Origin: Candidatus Marsarchaeota archaeon
GTDB taxonomy: Archaea; Micrarchaeota; Micrarchaeia; Micrarchaeales; Micrarchaeaceae
DNA length: 36,585 nucleotides
Direction: 5' to 3'
NCBI GenBank assembly: GCA_023485645.1
Contig: JAMCZM010000016.1
Span: 3,210-39,794 of the forward strand
The notes under the pieces were generated by a model. It worked only from the letters and a program-made list of their open reading frames with translations, made no database searches and was not told the origin of the DNA. The translations under genes were made by a program, and so were the position numbers. Shown piece after piece: positions 4,518 to 33,333 of the stretch. Position 1 is the stretch's first letter, and each line of letters opens with the position of its first letter.

Positions 4518-4547
4518 TGCTTTGCGTATTAAAAATTATGTGATGCT

Positions 4548-11434: not shown

Positions 11435-11769
11435 TGATAGAAATGAAAACAAAAACCACTAATATACTTATGCTCATATTTGGCGCACTTATGAGTGCGT
11501 TAGGGCAATTTTTATTTAAGTATGCGTTTTCTTTTTCATCATATACTTTAGATTTGTATTTGCTTTTAGGTGTGTTATTTTATATACTCTCTACAGGAAT
11601 ATATTTTTACGTTCTTAGCAGAACACATTTGACATGGGCATATAGTATAGGTGGTTTGTCATATGTATTTGCCTTCATATTTGCAAACTTTATAGAGCAA
11701 ATACCTATTTTGCGATGGATTGGGCTTGCAGTAATTACTGTGGGTGTATTTCTAATAGGTATGAGCTAG
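11434..11769 (+). CDS. Second small 4-TM EamA/SMR-fold membrane protein (heterodimer partner candidate)
   Basis: The GTG at 11434 overlaps the upstream stop by 1 nt; an alternative ATG lies at 11443. Four hydrophobic helices are present in 111 aa. Confidence 0.5.
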   Translation: MIEMKTKTTNILMLIFGALMSALGQFLFKYAFSFSSYTLDLYLLLGVLFYILSTGIYFYVLSRTHLTWAYSIGGLSYVFAFIFANFIEQIPILRWIGLAVITVGVFLIGMS

Positions 11770-17134: not shown

Positions 17135-17174
17135 TTATGTATATTCATAGTATTATGTTAAAACGGTGTTAAAA

Positions 17175-17621
17175 ATGAACTCCAAGAAAAGTTTAACTGC
17201 AAAATTTGCAGTTATTAGTTCGAAATATGGCAAGATTCTAATATCAATGATGATCCTTTTTGGATACATCTCTGGTATTGGTATGTCACAGATAATAATA
17301 GGCGGAACTGGAACACAATCTGGTGTTGGTGGCGCGTTAAATGCAATATGTACAGTATATTCAGATGTTGAAACTGTAATATTCATATTGGGATTAACTC
17401 TGATGATACTGGGTGCGGCGCTATACGCTGGTTCTCATGTGATGCCTAGCCAATCAAAGGGTTCCCTACAAGGTTATGGAATGGGTATGATATTAGGAGG
17501 CGTAGTGGGTGTTATAATAGCTCTCTTAGCTCCATACATACTACAGTTGATAACAGGGCAGACTGCAGCGCAGATAACAGCACAATGCGGTAATATCGGA
17601 GGATTGCTGAGTGGATTTTAG
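17175..17621 (+). CDS. Small secreted two-helix hydrophobic protein, VirB2/TrbC/CedA1/TedC-like pilin candidate
   Basis: A basic N-terminus plus hydrophobic leader (KILISMMILFGYISGIGMS) is followed by a Gly-rich segment. Two long hydrophobic helices (VIFILGLTLMILGAALYAG and GMGMILGGVVGVIIALLAPYILQLI) are joined by a short polar loop (SHVMPSQSKGSLQGY). It is the first gene of the VirB4-containing cluster. The ATG at 17175 is preferred to the GTG at 17166. Confidence 0.5.
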   Translation: MNSKKSLTAKFAVISSKYGKILISMMILFGYISGIGMSQIIIGGTGTQSGVGGALNAICTVYSDVETVIFILGLTLMILGAALYAGSHVMPSQSKGSLQGYGMGMILGGVVGVIIALLAPYILQLITGQTAAQITAQCGNIGGLLSGF

Positions 17622-17721: not shown

Positions 17722-18453
17722 GTGGTAAATGTAATAAAACACTCGATAGATTTCTATATAAAGAATTTAGAGCTTATATTTCTGTTTTCAGTGGCATTTA
17801 TAATCGCATTTTTAATACCTGTATTCGCATCGCTTCCAACATTTAATGATGCAGGGGCGATATTTATAAGAACATCAAGCATATTTACAAATCTTAATAT
17901 AGTCAGCACGTCGGTTATAATTGCCGCGCTATTCTTTTCATTGTTATTTCTCAGCTTTGCAATAGTTGCAATAAACATACTTGTAAGGCATACAAGAACG
18001 CATACAAAGATAAAAGAGGAGGTAATTAAGGGAATAGAGCATTATACTAGTAGGGTATTCATTGTTCTGCTACTATATTCTGCTATAATAATATTGGTTA
18101 ACATAGCAACATATGGGTATGGCATATCAGGTGTTGCAACAGCAATAGTTGGCATATTATTACTGCCAATATTTTTCTATGCTCCAAGCGCAATTGTTAT
18201 AGACGAGCATAGGGTGCTTCCTGCTATAAGGTCTGGTGTAAATTTCTTCTTTAAACGATTTGATTATGTGTTTGTATGGCTTGTAATAGCAATACTTGCA
18301 TTAACAATATTTGATTTTATTTTCATAGTATTGACCGGAACTACAATATCAAGATATGCGATGCTCATATTTAATGCATTTGTAATATTGCCATTTCTTG
18401 TTGTGCTTCAGAGCCAGATGTATATGAAAAGATTTGCGATAATGCGGCACTGA
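17722..18453 (+). CDS. Polytopic membrane protein (about 6 TM), unknown function
   Basis: The start is GTG; there is no in-frame ATG near the 5' end. The protein consists of repeated long hydrophobic helices. Confidence 0.7.
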   Translation: MVNVIKHSIDFYIKNLELIFLFSVAFIIAFLIPVFASLPTFNDAGAIFIRTSSIFTNLNIVSTSVIIAALFFSLLFLSFAIVAINILVRHTRTHTKIKEEVIKGIEHYTSRVFIVLLLYSAIIILVNIATYGYGISGVATAIVGILLLPIFFYAPSAIVIDEHRVLPAIRSGVNFFFKRFDYVFVWLVIAILALTIFDFIFIVLTGTTISRYAMLIFNAFVILPFLVVLQSQMYMKRFAIMRH

Positions 18454-18511: not shown

Positions 18512-19816
18512 ATGCGGCTTCATTTTTATGTTATTTTTCTCTTTCTTTTTGGTATACTCCTATTTATACCATTTATAACATCAGCCGCAAAGGTAAATAC
18601 ACAGTATTTATTTACATCAACGCTTTCTGGTACTCAGTATATAGCAACAACATTAACCGAGGCAATAGCAACAGGTGCATTTACCAGTGCAGTTGCGCTT
18701 TCATTACTTGGCATATTACTTTCATTTCTTCTTATTGCAGTATCTTACATACTAGATTCTATGTTTAATATACCATCTCTAAAAGGTTGGTATAAAGGGG
18801 AGATACGCGAAACGATAAAATCAATAATAATTGTCGTGGTCGTATTTTCTGTGATCATAATAATGGGCAATATAGCCATAAGCGATTTTTCCGTAGGAAA
18901 TCTTGCTCCATTAAATGGCATAAATCAAATTACAACCACTACAGAAGCTATGTATAACGCAGTGGAGGTGCAGTATCTGGGCGCCGAATTAAATGATGTA
19001 AATGCTTCGTTGATAGGATTATTCGGACTATATGACGGTCTTGGCGTTCTAAAGACTACAACAGTATCATTATATGTGCCTATTCCGGTACTGCCACTGC
19101 CAGAATTTTATATAGGTTCAATAGACTTTGGGGTAAAAGAGAATCTTTATACGAGCAGTGTTCTTGGCTCTACTAATATCCCAGATGCAGGGCTTACAAC
19201 AGATATAGGAAAGGTTGTAGTTTTACCTATGTTAATTCTATTTCAGGTTGAGGTTGATGTATTTCCATATGTGGTAATTGCAGGGCTTACAGTATTGCTT
19301 CCTGCAGGAATAATACTTAGATCTATACCGCTTCTAAGATCGATAGGCGGTACACTAATAGCGTTGGGCATTGGTACTGCAATTGTATATCCGGCGCTAT
19401 TGTTGTTAATGAATTTACCGCTTACAAATTTTATAGCTCCGCCAGTTCAGACAGGAACAACCCCGCCATTTAATTGTGCTACAATAACAAATGGGGTAGC
19501 ATCAGCAAGCCTAACCTGTGGGTTCTTAAATAGCGCTGTTAGTACAACGCAGTCATATCTATCAAGCATGCCAAATAGTCAGCCATTGACGAATAATCTT
19601 CAATATGCTCTTAGTGGGTTTGTCGCAGGAATATCAAGCCTAACTAGTGTATACCCTGCGCTTAATTTCATAACCTCTCAGATGTATATAAATTTAATAT
19701 ACCAATTTATACTTAGCATACTCGATATTATAATAGGATTTACCATAACACAGAACATAGCAAAGATGTTAGGTGGTAGCATAAAGCTCGGAATCGGCAG
19801 ATTGAAACTGGCATGA
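18512..19816 (+). CDS. Polytopic membrane protein, paralog family member P1 (with signal peptide)
   Basis: The family motif RSIPLLRSIGGTLIALGIGTAIVYP lies at 19319-19393. An N-proximal motif K..EIRETIKS precedes a TM helix. The C-terminal tail reads KMLGGSIKLGIGRLKLA. Confidence 0.85.
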   Translation: MRLHFYVIFLFLFGILLFIPFITSAAKVNTQYLFTSTLSGTQYIATTLTEAIATGAFTSAVALSLLGILLSFLLIAVSYILDSMFNIPSLKGWYKGEIRETIKSIIIVVVVFSVIIIMGNIAISDFSVGNLAPLNGINQITTTTEAMYNAVEVQYLGAELNDVNASLIGLFGLYDGLGVLKTTTVSLYVPIPVLPLPEFYIGSIDFGVKENLYTSSVLGSTNIPDAGLTTDIGKVVVLPMLILFQVEVDVFPYVVIAGLTVLLPAGIILRSIPLLRSIGGTLIALGIGTAIVYPALLLLMNLPLTNFIAPPVQTGTTPPFNCATITNGVASASLTCGFLNSAVSTTQSYLSSMPNSQPLTNNLQYALSGFVAGISSLTSVYPALNFITSQMYINLIYQFILSILDIIIGFTITQNIAKMLGGSIKLGIGRLKLA

Positions 19817-19820
19817 TAAT

Positions 19821-20147
19821 ATGATAGATACGTGTGCACTGTATGGGGGATCAACATATGTAAGTAGTTGGTTAGAGCCATCATTATTAATAATATTGAC
19901 CGCATTTTTAATCGTTGCAATATTATATATATTATCAGGATTTTTCTCATCATCACTTCGATCTAAAATACGTGAAATGGTAAAATCTGAAATTGTACAG
20001 CTTGTTATAAGCGTCGTTATAATTGCAATACTATTAGGGTCTGCCGTAACAGCTTGCAATATTTCATCTTCAATTAGCCAGAGTCTTGTAAAGAGTTCAT
20101 TAAATCCAATACAGTATTCAGAATATTATATAGGTTCAAAAATCTGA
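19821..20147 (+). CDS. N-terminal fragment or subunit of paralog family member P2 (split gene)
   Basis: It carries only the N-proximal family elements (TM helix, then SKIREMVKSEIVQLVISVV). It ends at the TGA at 20145-20147, immediately after an A5 run (20138-20142). Confidence 0.6.
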   Translation: MIDTCALYGGSTYVSSWLEPSLLIILTAFLIVAILYILSGFFSSSLRSKIREMVKSEIVQLVISVVIIAILLGSAVTACNISSSISQSLVKSSLNPIQYSEYYIGSKI

Positions 20148-20149
20148 GC

Positions 20150-20950
20150 ATGAATACGGGGTTGAAGTTGCTATCTTATTTATATACAACATCAATTGTA
20201 TATGGTATAGATGCACGAATATTATATGTTATAGGCAATTCATTTGATTTTTTCCAGACGCGCGCTATCTTAGGCGCATCGATAAATTTTGGCATTAATC
20301 TGTCTGTTCCATATAATTTCTTAGCCACTTTGTATGTATCAGTGTTCTCTCCAATTCTTATAATAGTAATAGGCATGCTGCTTTTGCAATATATACTGCT
20401 TCCGCTGATACAGTATACCGCGTTTACTATAGTGCTACCAGTCGCACTTATTGTCAGATCTATTGCATATATAGGTACAAGTGGGGGCCTTAGGACTGCA
20501 GCTAATGCATTGATTGCAATAGCTATAGCCTTTTATTTGATATATCCGCTTACTATAGGGCTTGATAGCGTAATTGTTAATTGGTTATACTCACCTGCAA
20601 ACCCTACATATACATATTTGCAGCAGACCTTGCAATTCAATCAGATACCATCAACATTCTTATCCACTACAACAAGTACATTAACTGGTCCATCAGCATT
20701 TGGCTTATCTACACAATCTATAAGCTCATTATTAAATAGCGCGAGCACTTTGGGTATTGCGCACTTTTTAAATCCTATTAATATACCACAAGAGGCAAAT
20801 TTTATAATAACAACAATGGCACAATTTATATTTGTAGGAATATTCTTATTTGCGTTAAATATGGGTATAACGGTGGCATTTGCAATGAGTCTATCTAAAG
20901 CGCTTGATGCTGGAATAGATGGCGCCGGTTCATTCTGGAGAGGTTTATGA
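20150..20950 (+). CDS. C-terminal fragment or subunit of paralog family member P2
   Basis: It starts 2 nt after the upstream stop, in the -1 frame. It carries the family motif RSIAYIGTSGGLRTAANALIAIAIAFYLIYP at 20456-20548. Confidence 0.7.
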   Translation: MNTGLKLLSYLYTTSIVYGIDARILYVIGNSFDFFQTRAILGASINFGINLSVPYNFLATLYVSVFSPILIIVIGMLLLQYILLPLIQYTAFTIVLPVALIVRSIAYIGTSGGLRTAANALIAIAIAFYLIYPLTIGLDSVIVNWLYSPANPTYTYLQQTLQFNQIPSTFLSTTTSTLTGPSAFGLSTQSISSLLNSASTLGIAHFLNPINIPQEANFIITTMAQFIFVGIFLFALNMGITVAFAMSLSKALDAGIDGAGSFWRGL

Positions 20951-20951
20951 T

Positions 20952-22562
20952 ATGTTAGATATTTCAAGTATGTTATATGGAATAATATCACTTGGCAATT
21001 ATGTGATAACCTCATCTGATGTAAGTAGCGTAGGCAGTCAATTTATACCTATAATATTAATAGCGATCTTGGCTGACTCAATGATTATATCGTTATGGTA
21101 TATGATAAGCTCAATAATAAATAGTTCAGAATGGAAGGCTGGCGCTATAAGTGAATTTTATCAATTAGTTGGCACAGTAATAATAATGGTTATAATAGTG
21201 GGCGTGCTTGGTACATATGGAAGTGCGTTTGTATCATCATTAGGTAATAGCGGACTTTCTCCTACTAGTATGACATTAACATGCGCGAATTTAGAATTAA
21301 ATAGTAATCTGAACATACTTAAATTAAATCCTACTGGCCTTACAACGTACTCATTTCTATCGGGCATTAATGGATTATCATTTTCTGGATTATGTAGTTA
21401 TATATATGCCCAGGACATTGCGCCATCATTCTCATCTACGTTGAATTATCCACTTGCAGCAACTGGTATTATAACAGCAAATCTTACAAATCAGACTGCA
21501 ACAAATATAAATTCATATTTCGTACTGGACTCATATATTGGTTATTTAAAAGGTCTATCGCCAACGTATGAATTCTGTTTGCAAGGTGCTCCAGGTGAAG
21601 GACTATCCTGTTTGCTTCCGCCTCTCGCATTTGTAAATCCACCATTATTAACCGTGGTTGGTTCATACAAACCTTATGCTGGCTTTAGCATGCTTTATAA
21701 TATAATGAGGACGCTCGGTGTTCTTTTGACATCAGCATTAGAATCATTTATAGGTCAATTGCTTTTGATATCCACAATGTTAGAAATTTGGCCATATCTA
21801 CTATTTATCGGAATACTTGCAAGGGTATTCCCATATACTCGAAAAATTGGAGGGTTATTTATTGCAGTTGCTATTGGCGTATTATTCTTCTATCCCCTTA
21901 TATTCTCTATGGAGTATTTAACGATAGGACATGGATTAAATAGCCAAGTCAATCAGAATTCTCTTAATGTACAAAATGTAGCATCAGGGATTACAACGGC
22001 AACAGGACAGATCACAACAAATCCAATTACTGGTATTACAAATCTGATAAATAATAATCCGTTATCTGGACCTGGTCCTATAGGAAGTGCGTATGGTACA
22101 AATTATTCAACCACAAATACGCTTACAGAATTGCCGGCGGGGCTTGATGGTAGCATTCCATATAATCTTAATTTCTTTTCAGAGCCAAGTTTACAAGCGA
22201 TTGCAACAACAAATAATTGTTGGCCTGCAAATGGCGCAAAATATGGGTCTTTAAGCAGTGAGCTTTCTAATACTGCAACATTTCTAAATCCAATAACCTC
22301 ATCAATAAGTACGGTATTAATGTTTTTAAGAAGTACGAGTACGCTTCCATCAGGTGTTCCATCACTATATCTATCAAATGCTTGCAATGAACAGAGTTCA
22401 GAGAATATGTTATTTATGATAATGAACGCGTATGGTATAATAGGAATACCAGCATATTGGCTTCCTATAATGAATCTTGTAATAACGCTATCTGGCATTA
22501 TAGGTTTGTCTGGGTTGTTAGGCGGCGATACATTAATGGCCGGACTTGGTAATTTGGTATGA
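20952..22562 (+). CDS. Polytopic membrane protein, paralog family member P3 (no signal peptide)
   Basis: The ATG at 20952 lies 1 nt after the upstream stop; the tracker start at 20919 overlaps the previous gene. The family motif RVFPYTRKIGGLFIAVAIGVLFFYP lies at 21822-21896. Confidence 0.85.
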   Translation: MLDISSMLYGIISLGNYVITSSDVSSVGSQFIPIILIAILADSMIISLWYMISSIINSSEWKAGAISEFYQLVGTVIIMVIIVGVLGTYGSAFVSSLGNSGLSPTSMTLTCANLELNSNLNILKLNPTGLTTYSFLSGINGLSFSGLCSYIYAQDIAPSFSSTLNYPLAATGIITANLTNQTATNINSYFVLDSYIGYLKGLSPTYEFCLQGAPGEGLSCLLPPLAFVNPPLLTVVGSYKPYAGFSMLYNIMRTLGVLLTSALESFIGQLLLISTMLEIWPYLLFIGILARVFPYTRKIGGLFIAVAIGVLFFYPLIFSMEYLTIGHGLNSQVNQNSLNVQNVASGITTATGQITTNPITGITNLINNNPLSGPGPIGSAYGTNYSTTNTLTELPAGLDGSIPYNLNFFSEPSLQAIATTNNCWPANGAKYGSLSSELSNTATFLNPITSSISTVLMFLRSTSTLPSGVPSLYLSNACNEQSSENMLFMIMNAYGIIGIPAYWLPIMNLVITLSGIIGLSGLLGGDTLMAGLGNLV

Positions 22563-22566
22563 TCAT

Positions 22567-23730
22567 ATGAGCAAAAAAATAAATGCGGCAAATGCTACTA
22601 TTAAAAGAAAACGAATAGTTGCGACATTCTCTTTAGCAATGCTTCTTTTATTGGCATCGACATTTATCTATAATGTTGCAAGCGCTCAGATTACAACTTA
22701 TACAAATACTGCTACTACGCTACCAACGACTGCAACGCTCTGCAGTACAATAATACCTCAAAGTGAGCTGCTTACTATACCTACTGGCGTTCTCTCTACA
22801 ACATTGCTCATAATACTTACAATGGCTATCGTATCAGGTGTCATATATGCTGTTGGATACTCGTTAAAGATAAGCAAATTTATGAATTTTAGCAAGACTG
22901 AATTTGGAGAGATAGCAGTTACGATACTACTTGTCTTAATACTATTTGGATCATTTGCAGCATTAACCCCAAATGGGCTAGTAAATATAAACCCATTGAA
23001 TACGAGAACAACATTCATAAACGATTGCAATTTACTGGAGGGTTCATCATTTAATGTATATAATGATGTATTCACATACTTTTTGATACAGAATATAGAG
23101 CTGCAACTTGTAAGTAGCTTTAATGTGGAACTAGAGCCTGGGTTCTTCGGATTCAACTTTTCGCCATTTGTGGGCTATGGACTTGAGAGCAATCTATTAA
23201 ATACGATGCTTGAATTTGTGACCATGCTTGCAACATTGCTTATAGCACTGATAATAGTTTTGGGCGTTATATATGCAATATTTCCCGTATTTTTGTACCT
23301 TGGAATTATATTTAGAGCTGTTCCATGGACGCGTGTTGCTGGAGGCTCGTTAATTGCGTTATTTATAGGGTTTTATATGCTATTTCCTATACTTTTAGGT
23401 GCAATGATGGGTGCATATACACCAATAAGTCCATCAATGTCATATTTTGATAAGGTTGTTTCAAGTATGGACACGCTAGCATCCTCTGGAGTACTGCGCG
23501 GCGTTACAATACCTCTAGCTGTTGTAATAAATATATATAAGAATGTTGCAGGTGTTTTAGGATTTAATCTTATATACACAATAATACAGGGAACTGTAGA
23601 ACCTGTTATATATACAATATTCGCATTGGTATTATCACTTATAATCTCGCTTGATTTCACCGAATTGATGGGAGATTTCCTTGGCGCGCCAAGTCTGTCA
23701 TCAAAGAGTACGCTCTCAAAGGTGCTATGA
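22567..23730 (+). CDS. Polytopic membrane protein, paralog family member P4 (with signal peptide)
   Basis: The ATG at 22567 lies 4 nt after the upstream stop. The family motif RAVPWTRVAGGSLIALFIGFYMLFP lies at 23314-23388. Confidence 0.85.
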   Translation: MSKKINAANATIKRKRIVATFSLAMLLLLASTFIYNVASAQITTYTNTATTLPTTATLCSTIIPQSELLTIPTGVLSTTLLIILTMAIVSGVIYAVGYSLKISKFMNFSKTEFGEIAVTILLVLILFGSFAALTPNGLVNINPLNTRTTFINDCNLLEGSSFNVYNDVFTYFLIQNIELQLVSSFNVELEPGFFGFNFSPFVGYGLESNLLNTMLEFVTMLATLLIALIIVLGVIYAIFPVFLYLGIIFRAVPWTRVAGGSLIALFIGFYMLFPILLGAMMGAYTPISPSMSYFDKVVSSMDTLASSGVLRGVTIPLAVVINIYKNVAGVLGFNLIYTIIQGTVEPVIYTIFALVLSLIISLDFTELMGDFLGAPSLSSKSTLSKVL

Positions 23731-24917
23731 TGGAAATTAAATATAAAAGATATATCCTGCCATTTATTTTTATAGCGCTGCTTATGCCGATACTGGGCAT
23801 TGCATCTAGCACTAATAACCTAAAGAGTGCAATATTATTCACATCCGCACTATCTGAATTATTTAATAATACATTTACGGGCTCATACACATTTGCATTA
23901 ATTGCCGCAATGATTGTCTTTTTAATAGCGGCATTTGTTTATATGCTAAGCAATGTAATAGGCAGCCATAATGGTCTCAACTGGGCAAAGACTCAAATAT
24001 ACCAAGCATTAATTGGCATTATAATTTTACTGGTATTCGTCTGGTTAACTCCTTTATTGCTATCAAATCCATCAGGTGCATTAAATTCTGCTGGCATACT
24101 TCCAAGTACCTGCAGATCAAGCAATGTTAATACACTATTTAACACATCAGCATGCGATCTTTCAACATTTACCACTTCCGCAACAACACTCATGCAGACT
24201 ATATACTATCTAACATATGTGGAGGCGCTTATTCCGGGTGTTGGCATTGCACCTAATATACCATCAGATGTTTTCAATGTCGGATTTAAAAGCGAGGTGA
24301 GTTCAATTGCCCCAAAATCAATAGATGATATGACCTCAGTTGTGCTTGAAGCATTAATACTTGGATTGCTTTTAAATCAGGTACAGATGCTTATAATATC
24401 AGCCGCGCCGCTACTATTATCGCTGTTTATATCTATAGGTGTAATAGCTTGGATATTTGGGATAAGTAGAAGCTTTGGCGGGACGATGATAGCATTAGGC
24501 GTAGGTCTTGGAATAATATACCCGCTGCTTGTTACAATTACCTATGGATTTATATCAACCGGACTTCTTGCAACATTAAACAATCCTACAAATCTTCAAG
24601 GCATGCTGAATGCGTTTGGCAATATGGTATTAAATGTCTCAATTGCCCTATTTAACCTTATTACTATATGGAGCACTAATAATTTTGCTGCAAATACTGG
24701 TGCAAATCTTCAGGCGATAACAGTCTCTGCGTCGCAGGCATATCAATCCGCAATGGGTGAGATATATCTGCTGCTTGAGGCTATGGGGTTTGTTTTTGCG
24801 GGTCTTACGTTTATACCATTTCTAAATTTTACTATACTCGATTCATTCGTTATGGATTTTTCAAAAGCGATAGGTGAACGCGTAAGCTTCATGGATCTTA
24901 TAACAGGGTTGGTGTGA
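23727..24917 (+). CDS. Polytopic membrane protein, paralog family member P5 (with signal peptide)
   Basis: An ATGA start/stop overlap joins it to P4. A variant motif WIFGISRSFGGTMIALGVGLGIIYP lies at 24450-24524. Confidence 0.85.
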   Translation: MMEIKYKRYILPFIFIALLMPILGIASSTNNLKSAILFTSALSELFNNTFTGSYTFALIAAMIVFLIAAFVYMLSNVIGSHNGLNWAKTQIYQALIGIIILLVFVWLTPLLLSNPSGALNSAGILPSTCRSSNVNTLFNTSACDLSTFTTSATTLMQTIYYLTYVEALIPGVGIAPNIPSDVFNVGFKSEVSSIAPKSIDDMTSVVLEALILGLLLNQVQMLIISAAPLLLSLFISIGVIAWIFGISRSFGGTMIALGVGLGIIYPLLVTITYGFISTGLLATLNNPTNLQGMLNAFGNMVLNVSIALFNLITIWSTNNFAANTGANLQAITVSASQAYQSAMGEIYLLLEAMGFVFAGLTFIPFLNFTILDSFVMDFSKAIGERVSFMDLITGLV

Positions 24918-24920
24918 AAA

Positions 24921-26039
24921 ATGAAAAATAATTATAAACAAAAAATTGTTTTGATGTCTGGATTAATAATCATGCTACTCTCAACTATTTTTATGCATGT
25001 GGCAGCTGCATCAACTACATCAACAAGCGGTTGTGGATTATTGCAGCAGGGTATACAGCAAACAGTAGAGACCGATACACCTTGGTATTGTCCAATAAAC
25101 CAGCAGTTATACACCGATTGGACAGGTCAATTGCCATTGGCATTAATAGCTGTGTTAATCTCATTTTTAATAGCGGGAATAATATTTATGGTAGGTGCGG
25201 CGACAAAGAATGATCGCATAAGGAATTTTGGTGCAGGCGAACTATATGAGGCTATTGCAAGCGCAATAATAGTAGGAATATTTTTGTATGTGGCGGCGGT
25301 ATTATTTGGCTTATTGCCATCAATATTTGTGGGTCCTATAAATCCATTTGCCACGTCATTTCATTTTATGTTAAGTACAATACAGCAAGCTGAGTTATTG
25401 TTTGCATCATTATACCATGTGGTTATGTTGGATGCGTATTATGCATCAATAAAAATAGCCGTCGCATTTCCTCCAGCGGGAACTGAGGTTGGTAATATAT
25501 TAAACCTTGTTGCGCTACCATTGGATATATTTTTTATAGAGCCAGCAGAGGTCCTTGGCGTATTTTTGGCAGAGGGCATAATAGCAATATATGCAGAATA
25601 TTATCTTATGTTATTTTTTGCAGTTGCTGCAATACCTGTTTTTCTTGTTCCTGGTGTTATACTTCGTGCAATATTCCCAACACGTGCGCTTGGCAGCATG
25701 ATGATAGCAATAGCAATGGCATTCTATTTTGTAATGCCCGCACTTTTTGCAGTGGCGTTTTATTTTACCGCTCCTACAATGTATAAAGATATGGCGAGTG
25801 CAACAACGCAAATAAGCGGATTTAGCAATGGATCTGCAAGTATATTGAATTCTATATCTCCAAATAGCCCACTCGCGCTGCAACTTAGCAATGTTGAGAC
25901 CGCAATGAATGGATTATGGCTCATGATGTTGTTCTATCCATTCTTGATAATAGGTATATCATATGCCTTCTCGGTGCAAATTTCCAATTTTATGTCAGGT
26001 GCAGGCCAATCAAGTGGAAGATTGCGTGCGTTCATATAA
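24921..26039 (+). CDS. Polytopic membrane protein, paralog family member P6 (with signal peptide)
   Basis: It starts 3 nt after the P5 stop. The motif RAIFPTRALGSMMIAIAMAFYFVMP lies at 25665-25739. Confidence 0.85.
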   Translation: MKNNYKQKIVLMSGLIIMLLSTIFMHVAAASTTSTSGCGLLQQGIQQTVETDTPWYCPINQQLYTDWTGQLPLALIAVLISFLIAGIIFMVGAATKNDRIRNFGAGELYEAIASAIIVGIFLYVAAVLFGLLPSIFVGPINPFATSFHFMLSTIQQAELLFASLYHVVMLDAYYASIKIAVAFPPAGTEVGNILNLVALPLDIFFIEPAEVLGVFLAEGIIAIYAEYYLMLFFAVAAIPVFLVPGVILRAIFPTRALGSMMIAIAMAFYFVMPALFAVAFYFTAPTMYKDMASATTQISGFSNGSASILNSISPNSPLALQLSNVETAMNGLWLMMLFYPFLIIGISYAFSVQISNFMSGAGQSSGRLRAFI

Positions 26040-26109: not shown

Positions 26110-26135
26110 TTTCTTCTGATATATAATGGACTTTG

Positions 26136-26972
26136 ATGGACCAGAAAATCTTCTTATTTGGTATTTTAATTATAGCGGCATTTGCGCTAATAATAGCTGG
26201 AGCATTAATACCCTCGCAGATACTGCCTTATCCTATAAAAATAATAATTTACATACTAGCGATATTTTTAGATGTTCTTGCATTTGCAACAAGATACTAT
26301 ACATATATAATGATGCCTCTTTTTAAGCAGCGCAAAAAAAATATCACCTTAGACGTGCAGGAACCATATTGGATTGCTGGTAGCAATGATGCAATAGTAA
26401 GAAAGATAGGTGAGGAATTCATTGCAACTACCTTCATATTAATTCCACTTTATCGATCTGCAACAGAAATGTCTGTTGATGAAAAATTAAGTTTTGGGGC
26501 GCAAATAGGGCGTTTAATAAGTATAAATACTGAGCCTGTGCGATATTCGACACAGCTACATGTAATGGACAAGGAGGCATACTTATCAAGCATACGAGAT
26601 AGCCTTAATATGTCGGAGAATGAGATAATAGAATTGACGCAAAAAAATGCATCACAGCATGAGCTTGATAATGCAAAGGGAAGGGTTACGATGTGGCGCA
26701 ATATGATGGAGAGAATGTCTATTGAGCAGTCGTTTGAGCTTATGCTATACGCATCGGTATCAGCCTCAGGAACAAAAGAGTATGAGGCGACAAGCATTGT
26801 GCAGCAGCGCGCAAGAGATCTAATGTCAGGAATAAGTAGCACGCTTGGAATAACAACCTCTATAATAACGGGCAATGAGATGTTAAAGGTAATAGAGCCA
26901 GATCATTTGATACCATATTCGAATGTAAGAAAGCAAATAAATGCAAATATTTCAGGTGAGCAGAATGGATGA
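26136..26972 (+). CDS. TM-hairpin protein with soluble domain, VirB3-like hairpin plus VirB4 N-terminal-domain-like (paralog 1)
   Basis: Two N-terminal TM helices are followed by EPYWIAGSNDAIVRKIGEEFIATTFILIPLY...VRYSTQLHVMD...FELMLYASVSASG...LGITTSIITGNEMLKV. The pattern is shared with the next ORF and lies directly upstream of the VirB4-type ATPase. Confidence 0.45.
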   Translation: MDQKIFLFGILIIAAFALIIAGALIPSQILPYPIKIIIYILAIFLDVLAFATRYYTYIMMPLFKQRKKNITLDVQEPYWIAGSNDAIVRKIGEEFIATTFILIPLYRSATEMSVDEKLSFGAQIGRLISINTEPVRYSTQLHVMDKEAYLSSIRDSLNMSENEIIELTQKNASQHELDNAKGRVTMWRNMMERMSIEQSFELMLYASVSASGTKEYEATSIVQQRARDLMSGISSTLGITTSIITGNEMLKVIEPDHLIPYSNVRKQINANISGEQNG

Positions 26973-27798
26973 GATGAGTATAATATATATGGCGGTAACA
27001 TCGGTAGTGCTTCTAATAGCTCTTGCAATGGCTCCGTATGCAGCTCCTGGTCTTCTTTTTTATATTATATTATTTTTTATAGTGATAGCACTTGCCATAA
27101 TAGCTATACTAAATTGGGCTGATTTTTTAATATTTCCATTGGTTATGGGCAGGCTTGGCATAATCTTCGAGCCGGTAAAAGGTTATACTATCTCAAAGAA
27201 TCAGGAGGCTGTAATTAAACATGTAGGTGAATTATATTATGCGACTGGGTATATAACCGCAAATCTATACCCATATGAGTTTAAGCAGGAATTTAGCGAT
27301 CAGGAAGTTCAGCAAAAAATAGTTAATGCTCCAGATGTTTGGGAGCGTGCAGTTTCGAGCATTGACTTTCCATTTAAATTTCATGTGCTCTCAACTGGGA
27401 GAGACGTGCAGAAGGCAAGGGATGAGCTTGAGGGAAAACGTTCCTATCAAGAATTTCAAATGTCAAGAATGATGCAGAATACAAAGGGAAATGAGATGGG
27501 AATTGTTGATGTACAGAGGAAAATAAATATACTCCAAGCAAAGATGGATCGGTTATCACATGGCGAGAAGCCTATATCCACAATTATGTATATAGAGACA
27601 GCATCAGTTGGAGTTACTGAGAAATCCGCTCTGGATAATTTATCTGCGCAAATAGAGCGTTTGCAGGTTGCAATGAGTTCTATGGATATACAACTAATAC
27701 GCGTTGTAGGTAGAGAATTATATACACTGTTTAATTTTACATTCTCGCTGCCGACAAATTATATACAGGCTGCTGGTTATTTTGATTTGCAGGGTTGA
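26965..27798 (+). CDS. TM-hairpin protein with soluble domain, VirB4 N-terminal-domain-like (paralog 2)
   Basis: An ATGGATGA overlap joins it to the upstream gene. It has two TM helices, then EPVKGYTISKNQEAVIKHVGELYYATGYITANLY...FKFHVLSTGRD...STIMYIETASVG...MDIQLIRVVGRELYTL, collinear with the upstream ORF. Confidence 0.45.
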   Translation: MDEMSIIYMAVTSVVLLIALAMAPYAAPGLLFYIILFFIVIALAIIAILNWADFLIFPLVMGRLGIIFEPVKGYTISKNQEAVIKHVGELYYATGYITANLYPYEFKQEFSDQEVQQKIVNAPDVWERAVSSIDFPFKFHVLSTGRDVQKARDELEGKRSYQEFQMSRMMQNTKGNEMGIVDVQRKINILQAKMDRLSHGEKPISTIMYIETASVGVTEKSALDNLSAQIERLQVAMSSMDIQLIRVVGRELYTLFNFTFSLPTNYIQAAGYFDLQG

Positions 27799-27802
27799 TA
27801 AA

Positions 27803-29317
27803 ATGACACTAATGAAATTTCAAAATATAATGAGCAATGAAATAGCAAAGAGAGTATTCGTTACGCGTCCGCCAGAACCTCCAGCAAATATACTAATTGG
27901 CGATCCTCTAAAATCTGTGTATATAGGAACTACAAAGATGTTTAAGGTTCCATTTACTTGGACATATGCCAATTTAACAAATCCCCATATAGCTATTGTC
28001 GGTATAACAGGATCAGGAAAGAGCTATTTTGTAAAGACATTTCTTGTTCGTGCAAATTATGTATGGGGTACAAGTGCGGTAATAGTTGATTGGGCAGGCG
28101 AGTATAAAGCATGGGTAAAGCAGAGTGGTGGCACTATTGTCTCTCTTGGAAAGGGCGCATACATAAATATAATGGATTTATCTGGAATGAAGCCGTTAGA
28201 TCGTGTTAAGCAGATAATGAACTCATTTGAGTTGTTGACTGATATATCAGACTTTCCTGAGCAGAAGAGGCTTACAGAGGAGGCGATAGAGCAGGCATAT
28301 ACCAATATGGGATTTAATGTATCCGAAAAGCCGCTCGCAGGAAAAGAGGCCCCAACGCTAAAGGATGTTATAACGCTGTTTCAGGAAAAATTGCAGGATG
28401 GCACGTATGAATATCCTGCAGAGCTTGAAAATGCTATATATAGGCTTAGGCAGTTCGCGCGTGAGGGTGAGGATTATTTTGCTAGGAAAAGCACTATAGA
28501 TCTAGGTCAGTTAGCATCTTCAGGTCTTGTAGATATAGATCTATCCGGTCTCCCAGACGAGCGTTTCAGGGCTCTAGCCGCTCTTTTCATATTACAAACA
28601 CTAAAAGAGAAAATGCGTTTTGAGGGATGGAGCGAATCCAAAGGGCTAAAGACTATCGTTGTGCTTGATGAGGCATGGAAGGTGGCTAGCGATAATAGAA
28701 GCGATGCAATAACAATAGTTAGGGAAGGAAGAAAATATCAGTTTGGATTAATTGTTGCGTCTCAAAATCCTACCGATATAAACGAGGCAATATTCTCAAA
28801 TGTAGGCACAACATTTATATTAAGAATAAAATTTGAGAAGTTCATAAATTATATACAGGGTTCATTAAATTTTTCAGATTTTATAAGATCCGAAATAACC
28901 AAATTTGGTGTAGGGCAGGCTGCTGTAGAGATGGCATTTCAGACTGCAATACGCTTTCCAGAGACATTTATATTGGAAAAAATCTATGGGGAGGAGCCAC
29001 TTTCCGTATACAATATTGATCTAAATGGTATATTAACGCAAGCCGAAATAGCGGCAAACATAATATCTCGGGAGTACCAATTCGAGACAAATGAATTTAA
29101 GAACATACTAATAGAGTACAAGTTCTCTGCGGAAGATATTAATGCAATAATCGGAGAGTTTGATCAAAAGAGCAGGAATGTGGGCATAATAGATCTTCTT
29201 GTTCTATTTAGGCAATTTGGTATGAATAGCAACGATATGGTGCGCTTTTTAAAAGGGCTTGGCATTGATGATTCATTAATATCTAGAATAATAACAAGGG
29301 TGGGTAAGAATGGATGA
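27803..29317 (+). CDS. VirB4/TrbE/TraC/CedB-class ATPase (FtsK-HerA superfamily), C-terminal motor domain only
   Basis: Walker A GITGSGKS lies at 28001-28024. Walker B IVVLDEAWK has DEAW at 28667-28678. The downstream segment VREGRKYQFGLIVASQNPTDI follows. The ATG at 27803 lies 4 nt after the upstream stop. It is the only P-loop protein in the cluster. Confidence 0.8.
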   Translation: MTLMKFQNIMSNEIAKRVFVTRPPEPPANILIGDPLKSVYIGTTKMFKVPFTWTYANLTNPHIAIVGITGSGKSYFVKTFLVRANYVWGTSAVIVDWAGEYKAWVKQSGGTIVSLGKGAYINIMDLSGMKPLDRVKQIMNSFELLTDISDFPEQKRLTEEAIEQAYTNMGFNVSEKPLAGKEAPTLKDVITLFQEKLQDGTYEYPAELENAIYRLRQFAREGEDYFARKSTIDLGQLASSGLVDIDLSGLPDERFRALAALFILQTLKEKMRFEGWSESKGLKTIVVLDEAWKVASDNRSDAITIVREGRKYQFGLIVASQNPTDINEAIFSNVGTTFILRIKFEKFINYIQGSLNFSDFIRSEITKFGVGQAAVEMAFQTAIRFPETFILEKIYGEEPLSVYNIDLNGILTQAEIAANIISREYQFETNEFKNILIEYKFSAEDINAIIGEFDQKSRNVGIIDLLVLFRQFGMNSNDMVRFLKGLGIDDSLISRIITRVGKNG

Positions 29318-29618
29318 TAGCAATACGTTTTCAATAAACAGGTTGGATCTAAGAAGAGTTTTGCTTAATCTGGGCCTATCTGAGAAGAATATTGCTAGTT
29401 TATTTTCAATGATGGAAAAAAGCCACAGACATATAAACGCGATAACGCTTGCGTCAACGCTTGAAAAGATGGGTATTAATCGTGATAGAATAAAAAATGT
29501 ATTCAGGCGCTTTGGCATGAGTGATATACGCATACATAGGATAATGAATCAAATAGACGAGCAGCGCATAATTAATGAGACTGGAAAATTGTACGAAGCA
29601 ACGCTGGACAATAGTTGA
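29310..29618 (+). CDS. Small soluble protein with three helix-turn-helix-like hGhxxxxhxxhh repeats
   Basis: An ATGGATGA overlap joins it to the ATPase gene. The repeats are LGLSEKNIASLF, MGINRDRIKNVF and FGMSDIRIHRIM. Two more copies of the same motif occur at the ATPase C-terminus. Confidence 0.6.
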   Translation: MDDSNTFSINRLDLRRVLLNLGLSEKNIASLFSMMEKSHRHINAITLASTLEKMGINRDRIKNVFRRFGMSDIRIHRIMNQIDEQRIINETGKLYEATLDNS

Positions 29619-29623
29619 TTTAA

Positions 29624-30043
29624 ATGGGAAAAAATATTAATGAATCAAGATGTATAATGTGCGGAAAGGCAGTAGATGGCATTGATGTAAAAAATGATTA
29701 TGTAATAGATGCTATACGCTTTTTTAATAGAAAGATTTTGCATAAATACAGAAATTATAGGCTTGTGGTATGCAAGGACTGCTATATAAAATATAACAAG
29801 GGAAGAAAGGGGTTTGTTAAAAAACAGGCAGCATATATCGGAATAGGTATAATATTTGCGATATTTCTAATGATAGGTTCTGGCGGCAATCTGGTTGCGC
29901 TATTTTACGGGATAATTGTTATAATATTTATGTATGTGCTTTCACTTATTAGCTATCTACCAGCCCTAAAAATAAGCGATGCTAATAAACACATATCAAA
30001 GAATGAGATTATAAAGAAAAAGCAGAGGTTTAATAAATTTTAA
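29624..30043 (+). CDS. Zinc-ribbon (CxxC...CxxC) protein with two C-terminal TM helices
   Basis: CIMCGK and CKDCY pairs occur in the N-terminal ~55 aa. Hydrophobic segments AAYIGIGIIFAIFLMIG and LVALFYGIIVIIFMYVLSLISYL follow. Confidence 0.65.
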   Translation: MGKNINESRCIMCGKAVDGIDVKNDYVIDAIRFFNRKILHKYRNYRLVVCKDCYIKYNKGRKGFVKKQAAYIGIGIIFAIFLMIGSGGNLVALFYGIIVIIFMYVLSLISYLPALKISDANKHISKNEIIKKKQRFNKF

Positions 30044-30063: not shown

Positions 30064-30795
30064 ATGTCTGATCAAAATATTGGCGTTATAGAGCCAAATG
30101 TTGACATGTTTTCATTTAGTGGCACAATGAAAGGAAGTTTCGACGATCTCTCTAGGCGGTTATCTACGCTGCAAAATTTCTCATTAAAAAAGATCCCAAA
30201 TGGAATAATGCTATATTATGTGGAGAGTAGGGACATACAAAAGAAGCCATTTCTATTTCAAATAATAAAATTTAGCAATAGCAATGTTGAGGTTGATTAT
30301 TCAATATTAAAAGATTCCAGCGAGAAGCTAAGAAAGCTGCATGTTTTAAGGGGTTTTATAGGAATTATATCGCTGATAACAGATATATTCATAATAGATA
30401 CTGTAAGTTTGTTTCAGTATATAGATTCTGCAATAGACGATACCGTATCATCATTGTCCAAGAACTATAGCGTGCTTTTCAACAATTATGATTCATTGCT
30501 TGCAGAGTACAGAGAGATGCGTCGCTTAAATGTTGAACTGAGCAGCTCAAATAAAAATTTGACCGTAGAATCTGCGAGGTTAAATACGGAAAACGAGCAG
30601 CTAAAGGGCAGGTTAAAAGAACTTGAAAACTATTCGGATGAGTCTTTAATGGTTATAGTACAGGATTGGATAGAGTCCCATGATAACACTATAGACATAA
30701 ATGAATTTTCCAAAACTTATAAAGTTGTGCAACCGCGTGTAGAGCAGATATTAAATAAGATGGTAACATCTGGCTATATAGAGGCTAAGGGCTGA
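30064..30795 (+). CDS. Cytoplasmic coiled-coil protein with C-terminal winged-helix-like domain
   Basis: A heptad-like segment reads LLAEYREMRRLNVELSSSNKNLTVESARLNTENEQLKGRLKELENY. The C-terminus is INEFSKTYKVVQPRVEQILNKMVTSGYIEAKG. Confidence 0.6.
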   Translation: MSDQNIGVIEPNVDMFSFSGTMKGSFDDLSRRLSTLQNFSLKKIPNGIMLYYVESRDIQKKPFLFQIIKFSNSNVEVDYSILKDSSEKLRKLHVLRGFIGIISLITDIFIIDTVSLFQYIDSAIDDTVSSLSKNYSVLFNNYDSLLAEYREMRRLNVELSSSNKNLTVESARLNTENEQLKGRLKELENYSDESLMVIVQDWIESHDNTIDINEFSKTYKVVQPRVEQILNKMVTSGYIEAKG

Positions 30796-30948
30796 GCTGA
30801 TGATATATAACATAAAAATAAAAAAGCACGCGCGGAATGTAAAAATATATACGATAGTTAAAAAAATAAATACAAAGAAAAATAATTTCGTTACGGCTAT
30901 TTTCATGAAAGCATTTTCAGGTAAGAAAAAAGATGGTGAGTATTGAGC

Positions 30949-33333
30949 ATGGCTGGATTTGATATAAAAAAGCCAAAAAATATATTGATTATAGTCGCAG
31001 TGCTTGCAATAATAATAGTGTTTGCCTATCTGTCAATCTATATAAATAGCATTTTGAGTAGCATAACACATGGGGCTGCGCACTATACATACGGTCTTAA
31101 TGGCTATATCAACTATCATAATATACTTTTTTATAATCAGAGCAAATATCTTGTACCCTATTTTATTATCAATTATAATTATAAAAATGAATCTAACTTA
31201 TTTGTTAATGGATCAATATACTCCGAGCCAATACCCCGTAACATATATTTGTTAAATGCATCAAATGAATGTGTAAACTGTAATAATTTCAATACATTGC
31301 GAGCAGCACTTGCAAATGATCTTGTAAGTTATGGTGTGATAGGAAATGTGTCAAATCTTTTGCTTATAAGTCCAGACAATTTAACACAAATCCGCAATAA
31401 TTCAATATTAATTTCACCCACTGGATTTTTACCATCTCAATTATTTCAGAATGTTTCAGAAAATATGACCGTTTTCAAATTATTGATGGAGCGTGGTACT
31501 AGTTTAATTTATGTTGGCGGCGCGTTAAATTATATGGTACTACCTGGTAGCATACAGGTTATAAATAAGGAGCAGCCATACCAATTGGCTATGGGTGCAG
31601 AACCTTATAGAAATCAGAGCTTCTATAAGTCATTATTTAATAGCAGCATGGGGTATATGTTCTTTCAGAATGCCACATATGTATTAACAAGAGGAAATAA
31701 TTTCTGGCTTGCTGATTATATAAATATTTTAAATGGTTCATTTATAGCAATACCAAATTATCCAAATACGTGGAGCACAAATAATCTATCGCTTGCATTA
31801 TCAAAGGGAACATCAGAGCTCTTCTGGTTGCCAATATATAGCTCCGGACAATATCATATTTCAAACAAAAATGTCACCGGCGACGGAAAGCTTGGGCTGT
31901 TTTTAACTTCAACAAATTTGCGCTATAACGAGAGTCCAACTACGCTTCTAAATAATTCGTATGCGCGAATAGAACTATATACAGACAAAGCTTATTTGAT
32001 ACCTAATGGGAGCAAATACTATTACATTTATTATAATTCAAAATATATATTTAATGGGACAATATCTATGCCTGGATATGTCATACCTGAAAAGTTAAAT
32101 GGTATAAACATAACTATATTTACACACTCAAATATAACGCAGATTATACAGCCAAATATAAATATAAAAAATCAGAATGGTACAACGATATACTCCCATC
32201 CATTACCTTATATAAAATCCTCAGGCAATTTTTCATTCATACAAAATGAGATATTTAATTTATCTCCTGGCAACTATCAATTTTCAGTGGTAAGTTTTTC
32301 TGGATATAACTATGGTACTGCGCTGCTTTATGTGCCTCCAATTCAGATAACGCCGTTAAATATTAACTTTACAAATGGTACATTCTTATTATATCTAACA
32401 ATGAACCAGCAGCAATTGAATAATATAAATTATACAATAAATATGACTAATAATTACTCGCAATCTGGTAGAATAACCGATGGCCTCATATTCTATAAAC
32501 TGCCTCAGAATTACAAGGAGCCTTATGGGAATGTTTCATTTGATATAAATATGCTAGGCTCAAAGTTTCCGTTTAAAATCGACAATCCTGCAATAAACAT
32601 AAGTCTAACGTCCGGAGATCTTTATGTAATCATAGTAATAATTATTGTCATAATTTTGGTCGTATTCGTACGTGATCCAATACGTGATGACTTTTATGTT
32701 GACGTCCCATCAATACCAAAACAAAAGAGCATAAATGTTGTGATAAAAAGTAAGGATATAATAAATGCGTTCGATAGACTTAACGTATATTACCATTGGA
32801 AGTACATGCCTTTAAACATAGAGGAGATACGAACAGCAATAGCAAATAATATACGTGATAATAATGTGCCGCTATCGCTTACCTATCAGAATGTAGAACT
32901 TTTGGTGGAAGAATTAGAAAAATCTGGCAAGCTTATAGAATATGATAACCTATACGCTCCAATAGATTGGGTGCAGCGCTCTGGGCATGACATTGAATAT
33001 ATCGCCACGTTTAAAAAATTAAGATTATGGTTTGTTTCTCATGGTTATATAATAAATGAGATGGATACCAGCAGCGCAGCTGATATAATAGCGACCATAA
33101 AAGGAGAGAGAATATACGTTATTATTTATTCAAGCACAAGCAAATTCATAAATATGCCATTATACGAGAATGCGCAAACATATCTCGCATTTATAAATGG
33201 TGATAGGCTTAATGAATTCAACGAAAAAATATCTGGTATGGTGGACCTTAATATTCAGAGGCTGAAATTATATATAAGTTATGGAGAGATAAAGCTTATG
33301 GATGCAGATAAGCCTGAAAAGACCATAATCTAA
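30949..33333 (+). CDS. Large bitopic membrane glycoprotein: N-terminal anchor, ~530-aa sequon-rich ectodomain, second TM helix, ~220-aa cytoplasmic domain
   Basis: TM1 is ILIIVAVLAIIIVFAYLSIYI. The ectodomain carries many N-x-S/T sequons. TM2 is LYVIIVIIIVIILVVFV. The cytoplasmic tail has a wHTH-like segment (LTYQNVELLVEELEKSGKLIEYD) and a nuclease-fold-like segment (DIEYIATFKKLRLWFVSHGY...ADIIATIKGERIYVIIY). The ATG at 30949 is preferred to the TTG at 30943. Confidence 0.75.
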   Translation: MAGFDIKKPKNILIIVAVLAIIIVFAYLSIYINSILSSITHGAAHYTYGLNGYINYHNILFYNQSKYLVPYFIINYNYKNESNLFVNGSIYSEPIPRNIYLLNASNECVNCNNFNTLRAALANDLVSYGVIGNVSNLLLISPDNLTQIRNNSILISPTGFLPSQLFQNVSENMTVFKLLMERGTSLIYVGGALNYMVLPGSIQVINKEQPYQLAMGAEPYRNQSFYKSLFNSSMGYMFFQNATYVLTRGNNFWLADYINILNGSFIAIPNYPNTWSTNNLSLALSKGTSELFWLPIYSSGQYHISNKNVTGDGKLGLFLTSTNLRYNESPTTLLNNSYARIELYTDKAYLIPNGSKYYYIYYNSKYIFNGTISMPGYVIPEKLNGINITIFTHSNITQIIQPNINIKNQNGTTIYSHPLPYIKSSGNFSFIQNEIFNLSPGNYQFSVVSFSGYNYGTALLYVPPIQITPLNINFTNGTFLLYLTMNQQQLNNINYTINMTNNYSQSGRITDGLIFYKLPQNYKEPYGNVSFDINMLGSKFPFKIDNPAINISLTSGDLYVIIVIIIVIILVVFVRDPIRDDFYVDVPSIPKQKSINVVIKSKDIINAFDRLNVYYHWKYMPLNIEEIRTAIANNIRDNNVPLSLTYQNVELLVEELEKSGKLIEYDNLYAPIDWVQRSGHDIEYIATFKKLRLWFVSHGYIINEMDTSSAADIIATIKGERIYVIIYSSTSKFINMPLYENAQTYLAFINGDRLNEFNEKISGMVDLNIQRLKLYISYGEIKLMDADKPEKTII

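Follow-up and report, generated by a model that had tools for sequence, protein, structure and literature searches.

What kind of apparatus would require six tandem membrane protein genes next to a conjugation-type ATPase gene on the chromosome of an ultrasmall archaeon? This question is raised by a stretch of 36,585 nucleotides (hereafter the window) from a contig labelled Candidatus Marsarchaeota archaeon (JAMCZM010000016.1, positions 3,210 to 39,794 of the forward strand), in which positions 18512-26039 hold six consecutive plus-strand open reading frames (ORFs), here named P1 to P6. We favour the reading, to which we give about an even chance, that their products are six anciently duplicated, non-redundant subunits that are embedded in the membrane as part of a Micrarchaeota-specific machine spanning the envelope, similar to type IV secretion systems (T4SS) and to the archaeal Ced system and equipped with an ATPase of the VirB4/CedB/HerA type. 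Because the array shares one operon with such an ATPase, P1-P6 are best read as belonging to the membrane part of a T4SS/Ced-like apparatus. A previous sequence-only reading of this DNA had suggested a T4SS channel analogous to VirB6/CedA; the shared operon bears out the context that it assumed, whereas homology to VirB6 was not found.

The relationship among the six proteins could not be established with single sequences. Pairwise phmmer comparisons of P1-P6 gave 11-29 bits, values inseparable from those of collinear local shuffles of such hydrophobic proteins, and therefore ortholog profiles were compared, with groups drawn from 84 related loci (46-56 sequences per paralog). Using hhalign, all 15 of the 15 P-P pairs reached probabilities of 96.0-99.2% with E-values between 4e-9 and 1e-19. 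The alignments were collinear and covered approximately 190-290 columns, from the first core transmembrane (TM) helix to beyond the shared motif, the exception being P2-P5 with 68 columns. Control profiles of the neighbouring genes U2, D1 and D2 did not exceed 15% and column-reversed profiles did not exceed 30%. P1-P6 are thus true paralogs, as had been proposed, with a similarity well above chance. The objection that the shared motif might be merely compositional agrees with the weak single-sequence scores but not with the profile-profile E-values, which are significant.

The motif itself had been located exactly by the sequence-only reading, since each of the six coordinate pairs translates to the peptide quoted there. 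The P2 copy is longer by an insertion of 6 residues and has no GG. In a family alignment of 128 sequences, which recovered this motif together with the upstream E-x-x-E and the glycine of the C-terminal tail described earlier, G246 and P274 (P4 numbering) are invariant and Y94, E115, F242, R250, R256, G259, G260, I263, A264, G268, P346 and G369 are at least 90% conserved. A word-indexed profile search found 117 family members, all annotated as hypothetical protein and none with a Pfam domain. An exhaustive profile search of 1.84 billion representatives returned 2,903 sequences at E <= 1e-3 and 2,112 at E <= 1e-10, so the family is a large one, with some 2,900 representatives at 50% identity. 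No model for P1-P6, U1, U2, D1 or D2 exists in Pfam, NCBIfam or PHROGs, and the sole match of the P-family profile among PDB sequences, an archaeal flagellin (E 0.09), was judged spurious. Literature searches on Micrarchaeota and other DPANN archaea found no earlier account of the cluster, the searchable library being incomplete. The family is therefore unnamed and apparently undescribed, as had been suspected.

The architecture formerly deduced for these proteins (a TM helix near the N-terminus, a polar motif leading into another helix, a long variable external region, the motif-bearing TM region and a Gly-containing tail) was supported by hydropathy, by the positive-inside rule and by an AlphaFold2 (AF2) model of P4 with a predicted local distance difference test (pLDDT) value of 76.9, above 90 in the TM core, and a predicted template modelling score (pTM) of 0.67. 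In this model a hydrophobic segment is followed by an external linker, the helix TMa, a short basic loop and the E-x-x-E that opens TMb. A helical ectodomain of about 90 residues comes next (a 41-residue helix and a β-hairpin). TMc is the C-terminal half of the 48-residue helix that follows, and the R-x-x-P-x-x-R-x-x-G-G turn joins it to TMd; another external region leads to TMe, and the chain ends in a short amphipathic tail. The density of lysine plus arginine is 0.33, 0.30, 0.18 and 0.10 in the four predicted cytoplasmic segments and 0.00, 0.01 and 0.05 in the external ones, and because this follows the positive-inside pattern the motifs conserved family-wide are placed on the predicted cytoplasmic face. 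The conserved residues cluster at the E-x-x-E of the TMa-TMb loop, at the R-x5-R-x-x-G-G of the TMc-TMd turn and in the Gly-containing C-terminal tail. Within the individual ortholog groups conservation is likewise highest at the motifs and the last TM helix with its tail (0.5-0.73) and lowest in the external segments (0.11-0.25). What had been called signal peptides is, in the window, an N-terminal hydrophobic segment present in P1, P4, P5 and P6 and missing from P2 and P3; this distribution holds in part across orthologs: those of P1, P4 and P6 consistently have the segment, those of P2 lack it, and those of P3 and P5 vary. No internal duplication was detected, as no comparison of hairpin 1 with hairpin 2 inside the P proteins exceeded 5% in hhalign.

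The array is part of a larger cluster. Using the ATPase, 118 confirmed loci were retrieved among species-representative genomes, and the best 80 of these 118 are nearly all labelled Micrarchaeota, including the complete genome of strain ARM-1, with identities of 63-79%. The order U2-P1-P2-P3-P4-P5-P6-D1-D2-ATPase-E1-E2-E3-E4 was observed in the approximately 50 loci that span the region, each of them with one member per paralog group and without copy-number variation. The canonical order is also found in two near-complete genomes and in loci L001 and L003; one or two copies of U1 precede it, and in metagenomic loci U1 stands at the cluster head as well. Gaps between genes of the array range from -32 to +5 nt, and D1, D2, the ATPase and E1 overlap by 8-17 nt, a tight spacing that fits co-translation of one complex. 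Comparison with a sister strain (L116) gave ratios of nonsynonymous to synonymous substitution rates (dN/dS) of 0.027-0.063 for the P genes and of 0.015-0.09 for the whole cluster, values that indicate strong purifying selection on every gene of the cluster. Together with this selection, the constant copy number and gene order favour non-redundant subunits over a diversifying surface set.

In the window P2 is broken into two pieces in different frames (19821-20147 and 20150-20950). The break results from the loss of one nucleotide in an A5 run (about 20139-20143), and one added A restores an ORF of 376 amino acids (aa) whose junction, YYIGSKNLSMNTGL, agrees with the ortholog consensus YYIGNLSxNTGL. 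The gene is unbroken in 54 of 55 related genomes and three sister-strain contigs carry an intact gene of 374 aa, so the split is a homopolymer indel specific to the window sequence. Since the repaired gene still shows a dN/dS of 0.028, the indel is either an assembly error or very recent; if real, the frameshift is possibly phase-variable. In P4 the start is most likely 22567 rather than the mechanical ORF start at 22546.

The gene product that connects the cluster with secretion is the ATPase, in which a VirB4/TraG/HerA-type C-terminal P-loop domain was recognized by Pfam, NCBIfam and PDB comparisons (VirB4 4ag5, 1e-8). Pfam matches were DUF87 (4e-18), AAA_10 (3e-14) and the TraG P-loop domain (2e-11). 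In NCBIfam the matches were CedD (1e-21), the VirB4 of mycoplasma integrative and conjugative elements (VirB4_plasma, 2e-18) and CedB (1.5e-17), followed by the CD1110 VirB4 (1.4e-16), HerA (8e-16) and TraC (3e-15), with VirB4_CagE also listed. The position of the Walker A motif at residues 74-81 means that the protein has neither an N-terminal domain nor a TM helix. In two long-read assemblies (L118:13845-15578 and L119:13946-15213) the ATPase gene was called as two or three fragments, which are likely to be homopolymer frameshift errors like that of P2 in the window.

Between the array and the ATPase lie D1 and D2, which form a second tandem paralog pair (hhalign 97.6%). In the Ced system the TM helices and N-terminal domains of CedB and CedD jointly mimic the N-terminal domain of VirB4 (PMC11868833), and because of this arrangement D1 and D2 had been predicted, before the fold search, to be VirB4-N-terminal-like modules. 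When a model of D2 (pLDDT 77.6) was compared with 350,542 PDB chains, the top four were all TrwK/VirB4 of R388, with a probability of 0.80 (0.57 for the fourth) over 190 columns at a root-mean-square deviation of 5.9 Å. These model-based matches are supportive of the predicted role of D1/D2 but not conclusive.

At the head of the cluster, U1 has a long signal-like N-terminal leader, a first helix at about residues 55-90, a conserved K-G-S-x-Q-G-Y-G-M loop and a second helix at about 101-130. By alignment and hydropathy this is the architecture of the VirB2/TrbC/CedA1/TedC pilins, in which a leader precedes two hydrophobic helices with a short loop between them. No pilin model of Pfam or NCBIfam matched U1, and a profile search of PDB sequences gave 0 matches at E <= 10. 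The helix-loop-helix of U1 aligned with the first hairpin of P2 at 76-80% in hhalign (E ~2e-5), the reversed controls staying at or below 1.4%. CedA1 is reported to be homologous to the N-terminus of CedA, and VirB2 to VirB6 (PMC9905601); the resemblance between the two profiles in our cluster is suggestive of the same relationship. In many genomes U1 occurs as two divergent tandem copies, those of L002 being 36-45% identical to the single U1 of the window.

The sequence-only reading overlooked U2, which is conserved directly after U1. It had no family match and only 0.2% against a VirB6 profile in hhalign. Nevertheless, judged by size and position, it suits the CedA/VirB6 slot no less well than P1-P6. 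In the divergent metagenomic loci L109-L112 (for example L109:2414-4779) a U1-like pilin gene is directly followed by a single gene for another polytopic protein, X, of 606-641 aa with 11-14 TM helices. Profile comparison found protein X unrelated to U2, the P family, VirB6 or U1, and the pair may be a different pilin-plus-channel system.

In the machine that we favour, P1-P6 would assemble together as a hetero-oligomeric platform or stalk, and their conserved cytoplasmic face would dock on the ATPase, probably via D1 and D2. These two proteins may provide the membrane anchor and the VirB4-N-terminal-like domain that are missing from the ATPase. The outer helical domains of P1-P6 would cross the envelope and support a pilin-like filament or channel made of U1, and the cargo could be DNA or another host-derived molecule taken up by the episymbiont. 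Of the two options of the sequence-only reading, a hetero-oligomeric channel and a surface-variable set, it is the former that one-to-one orthology, gene order and selection favour. The hetero-oligomer and its stoichiometry, as well as the T4SS link beyond the ATPase, are what we infer.

A number of results weigh against this machine. The ATPase alone among the components has a significant link to any T4SS protein, and even it scored far below every curated cutoff of NCBIfam (the best, CedD, 77 bits against 600) with scores that do not clearly separate VirB4 from HerA. The fold match of D2 to VirB4 is not significant (E = 0.22, TMq 0.36) and the D2 profile gave no sequence signal against TrwK (hhalign 0.6%). 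U1 reached only 0.6% against TrwL and had no PDB sequence match, and its link to the P proteins is limited to one of the six groups, the other five remaining at or below 13%. Moreover, in about a dozen loci that have the ATPase module, neither strand shows a P array next to it. At least nine of the loci have D1-D2-ATPase-E1-E2, and the 1.3-8 kb available upstream contains P or U genes on neither strand. In three others the ATPase is present but neither D1/D2 nor the array is recognisable near it (L055, which is ARM-1, AP024486; L071, OY969902; and L024), and in the complete genomes L055 and L071 the upstream side of the ATPase has just one ORF, unlabelled and of about 300 aa. On account of these loci the array may be dispensable, relocated or clade-specific. 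In two loci (L099:534-3214 and L101:828-3482) U1 was found directly upstream of D1-D2 with no U2 or P array in between.

Closest to the earlier proposal would be that P1-P6 are true but highly diverged homologs of VirB6/TrbL/CedA/TedA, amplified sixfold in the manner of the Rickettsiales VirB6 arrays, which we consider rather unlikely. They are polytopic, with at least five TM helices and a large extracytoplasmic loop, their genes lie near that of a VirB4-type ATPase, and tandem paralogs of VirB6 have the Rickettsiales precedent. The likeness of U1 to the first hairpin of P2 parallels the homology of VirB2 to VirB6 and of CedA1 to the CedA N-terminus, and Ced and Ted components are themselves without mutual sequence similarity (PMC9905601). 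TrwI/VirB6 chains also recur when the P4 model is compared with the PDB by Foldseek, at ranks 4, 14, 26 and 30 of 350,542 chains. Their E-values of 1.3-3.7, probabilities of at most 0.16 and TM-scores of at most 0.35 are not significant, however, and weigh against the favoured reading too; for R388 VirB6 the values were E 1.3 for 8rt9_F (rank 4), E 2.7 for 8rtd_L (rank 14) and E 3.7 with TMt 0.35 for 7o3v_F (rank 30). The best PDB match was TTYH2 (E 0.19, not significant), and in the BFVD viral library a TrbL-annotated protein came second (E 0.64, not significant). In sequence and profile comparisons no similarity appeared: hmmscan against Pfam-A (E <= 1) found no match to TrbL (PF04610) in P1-P6 or U2, NCBIfam gave no match to a Ced membrane component for P1, P4 or U2, and the P-family profiles of 71 and 128 sequences stayed at or below 0.2% in hhalign against TrwI and a VirB6 profile which is small and proteobacterial only (9 sequences from plasmid VirB6 genes), a result that counts against both readings. 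The motifs differ as well (an invariant W, G-P and N in VirB6; E-x-x-E, R-x5-R-x-x-G-G and P in the P family), and CedA/TedA are better matched in position and size by U2. Homology of P1-P6 to VirB6/TrbL is therefore not supported, though the two families may be very distantly related. The U1-P2 alignment would also suit filament or tip subunits, extracted from the membrane and placed in or at the base of a U1 filament like minor pilins or like FliP/Q/R, which assemble from hairpins in type III systems. The VirB2-type building block, a hydrophobic helical hairpin with a short basic cytoplasmic loop, occurs twice in each P protein, and the AF2 model has long helices of 40-48 residues. Five TM helices, a cytoplasmic amphipathic tail and conservation concentrated on the cytoplasmic side are more in keeping with a protein that stays in the membrane, and with the similarity to U1 confined to one paralog group we regard such subunits as quite improbable.

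The other option of the sequence-only reading, a surface-variable or host-recognition set of interchangeable adhesin or antigen variants such as has been proposed for the pilin arrays of Patescibacteria, Bartonella and Anaplasma, would suit an episymbiont. It would also agree with the low column identity of the extracellular segments at deep divergence (0.11-0.25) and with the P proteins having diverged much more quickly than the ATPase, as shown by median identities of 29-39% versus 67% across the same 31 genomes. Variable arrays, however, normally expand and contract, whereas here exactly six copies are kept with one-to-one orthology and fixed order in about 50 genomes. Paralog-specific features are also maintained, such as the lack of an N-terminal segment in P2 and the long ectodomain of P3. 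With dN/dS values of 0.03-0.06 and, between the sister strains, no excess of dN in ectodomain codons over core codons (0.034 versus 0.036, Fisher p = 0.61), the variable set is disfavoured and in our view highly improbable. Counts of N-glycosylation sequons in the ectodomains were too low to be informative about enrichment. A cluster with no secretion or uptake function at all, in which a HerA/FtsK-type ATPase and its membrane partners serve chromosome segregation, division or membrane remodelling or ordinary permeases are merely co-located, is very unlikely too. For it speak the PDB sequence matches of the ATPase, which include both HerA and VirB4 and are as good for the former as for the latter, the weak ZapB/CdvB-like coiled-coil matches of E3 and the position of the cluster amid housekeeping genes. 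Against it, family scans of the window found neither NurA nor another nuclease family, and the ATPase domain begins at about residue 45-65, which leaves no room for the HAS-barrel N-domain of HerA. Moreover no P protein matches a transporter family, a pilin-like gene heads the cluster, the best fold matches of D2 are to VirB4, and the tight operon structure argues against chance co-location.

Among described systems, Ced and Ted, which import DNA in Crenarchaeota, offer the nearest archaeal comparison to the proposed machine. They consist of a pilin (CedA1/TedC), a VirB6-like channel (CedA/CedE/TedA) and VirB4-like ATPases (CedB/CedD/TedB). Like them the present cluster is archaeal, chromosomal and relaxase-free, and places a small two-helix pilin-like gene beside genes for polytopic membrane proteins and a VirB4/HerA-superfamily ATPase. 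The best NCBIfam matches of the window ATPase are the CedD and CedB families, the component pairs CedA/CedE and CedB/CedD parallel D1/D2, and modules resembling the VirB4 N-terminal domain are split over two proteins in Ced (PMC11868833), as is proposed here for D1/D2. Unlike in Ced and Ted, these TM and N-terminal-domain-like modules are encoded apart from the ATPase, and six paralogous 5-TM proteins with large ectodomains have no counterpart there. All scores of the window are far under the cutoffs of the Ced models, the organism carrying the cluster is a DPANN episymbiont, and an Ups-type context is lacking. The predicted archaeal secretion system of Makarova 2015 (arCOG01314/arCOG02884) has different components and is not the present cluster.

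Functionally, the closest parallel is the chromosomal T4SS of the Patescibacteria, bacterial epibionts in which this system is essential and contains tandem arrays of divergent VirB2-like paralogs (PMC12102498, PMC12857230). Here too the organism is an ultrasmall, genome-reduced episymbiont with a conserved chromosomal VirB4-type cluster lacking a relaxase and with tandem divergent paralogs; the array of Southlakia also numbers six and is essential for epibiotic growth (PMC12857230, PMC12102498). The analogy has its limits, since Patescibacteria arrays consist of small VirB2 pilins in 2-11 copies, whereas the window array is made of five-TM proteins of approximately 370-550 aa fixed at six, the host of the window cluster is archaeal and the likeness of the arrays is without established homology. 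A more specific form of our proposal, which we hold to be unlikely, is that one copy each of the six proteins combine into a hetero-hexamer, a pseudo-sixfold ring or stalk in the membrane that matches the hexameric ATPase. The resulting nanomachine would be DPANN-specific and would tap the host cell for DNA, nucleotides or lipids. It would then correspond, in an archaeon, to the T4SS that is essential in Patescibacteria, and its membrane component would be without homologs in any known secretion system.

Micrarchaeota and other DPANN archaea rely on their hosts for lipids, nucleotides and other metabolites, and the machinery behind this dependence is to our knowledge essentially unknown. Being chromosomal, under purifying selection and present in at least 80 Micrarchaeota genomes, and combining an ATPase and a pilin-like protein with the six-paralog set, the cluster is a concrete candidate for this missing machinery. 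Six fixed paralogous membrane subunits are an unprecedented set, and if the reading favoured here is true they would belong to a third and very divergent archaeal branch of conjugation-type machines, after Ced and Ted. Co-cultures of Micrarchaeota with their hosts exist, and make proteomics, cryo-electron tomography and purification of the complex feasible.

Table 1. Genes of the cluster, with window positions, and related loci in other genomes (L numbers).
Feature	Position	Strand	Description
U1	17166..17621	+	small pilin-like protein heading the cluster
U2	17722..18453	+	243 aa, ~6 TM; conserved directly after U1
P1	18512..19816	+	434 aa; motif RSIPLLRSIGG...YP at 19319-19393
P2	19821..20950	+	frameshifted single gene, 376 aa once repaired; motif at 20456-20548
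P3	20919..22562	+	547 aa; largest ectodomains of the array; motif at 21822-21896
P4	22567..23730	+	387 aa from ATG 22567; motif at 23314-23388; paralog modelled with AF2
P5	23727..24917	+	396 aa; motif at 24450-24524, first R replaced by W
P6	24921..26039	+	372 aa; motif at 25665-25739, GS instead of GG
D1	26133..26972	+	2 TM and cytoplasmic α/β domain of ~220 aa; paralog of D2
D2	26965..27798	+	277 aa (true start 26965); 2 TM and α/β domain of ~220 aa
ATPase	27782..29317	+	P-loop; VirB4/CedB/CedD/HerA superfamily
E1	29310-29618	+	conserved downstream gene
E2	29624-30043	+	TM; conserved downstream gene
E3	30064-30795	+	coiled coil; weak ZapB/CdvB-like matches
E4	30943-33333	+	796 aa, 2 TM; conserved downstream gene
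U1 tandem-duplicate loci	L002:711-1702, L096, L097, L102, L105, L118:2852-3804, L119:2725-3595
D1-D2-ATPase loci without array	L033, L035, L036, L038-L042, L079

The window belongs to the chromosome of a micrarchaeon (DPANN). Its GC content is uniform, and on both sides of the cluster there are housekeeping genes, among them that for topoisomerase VI B. A mobile-element origin was ruled out by this uniformity, by the housekeeping flanks, by the phylum-wide synteny and by the identity of the ATPase to any plasmid-encoded protein, which is 25-27%. In L002 (2609-5855) U2 and the P array are separated by an insertion of an rve-family transposase gene together with Mom-like, AAA and Ham1-like genes, and the upstream P genes of this locus appear fragmented. 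Clusters of the Micrarchaeota type were also found on contigs with other labels, namely Marsarchaeota (L012, L043), Acidiferrales bacterium (L023) and Methanothrix (P0112, P0365), which are probably cases of mis-binning or mislabelling.

Upstream of the cluster, positions 12-7946 of the window hold two giant ORFs, a 1501-aa one that has SprB repeats and a 1132-aa one whose DUF2341 match lies just under the Pfam cutoff (22.1 versus 23.4 bits); both probably encode surface or adhesion proteins. At 10967-11769 two EamA-family genes of half size (155 and 111 aa) adjoin each other, in place of the one 10-TM EamA transporter gene to be expected there.

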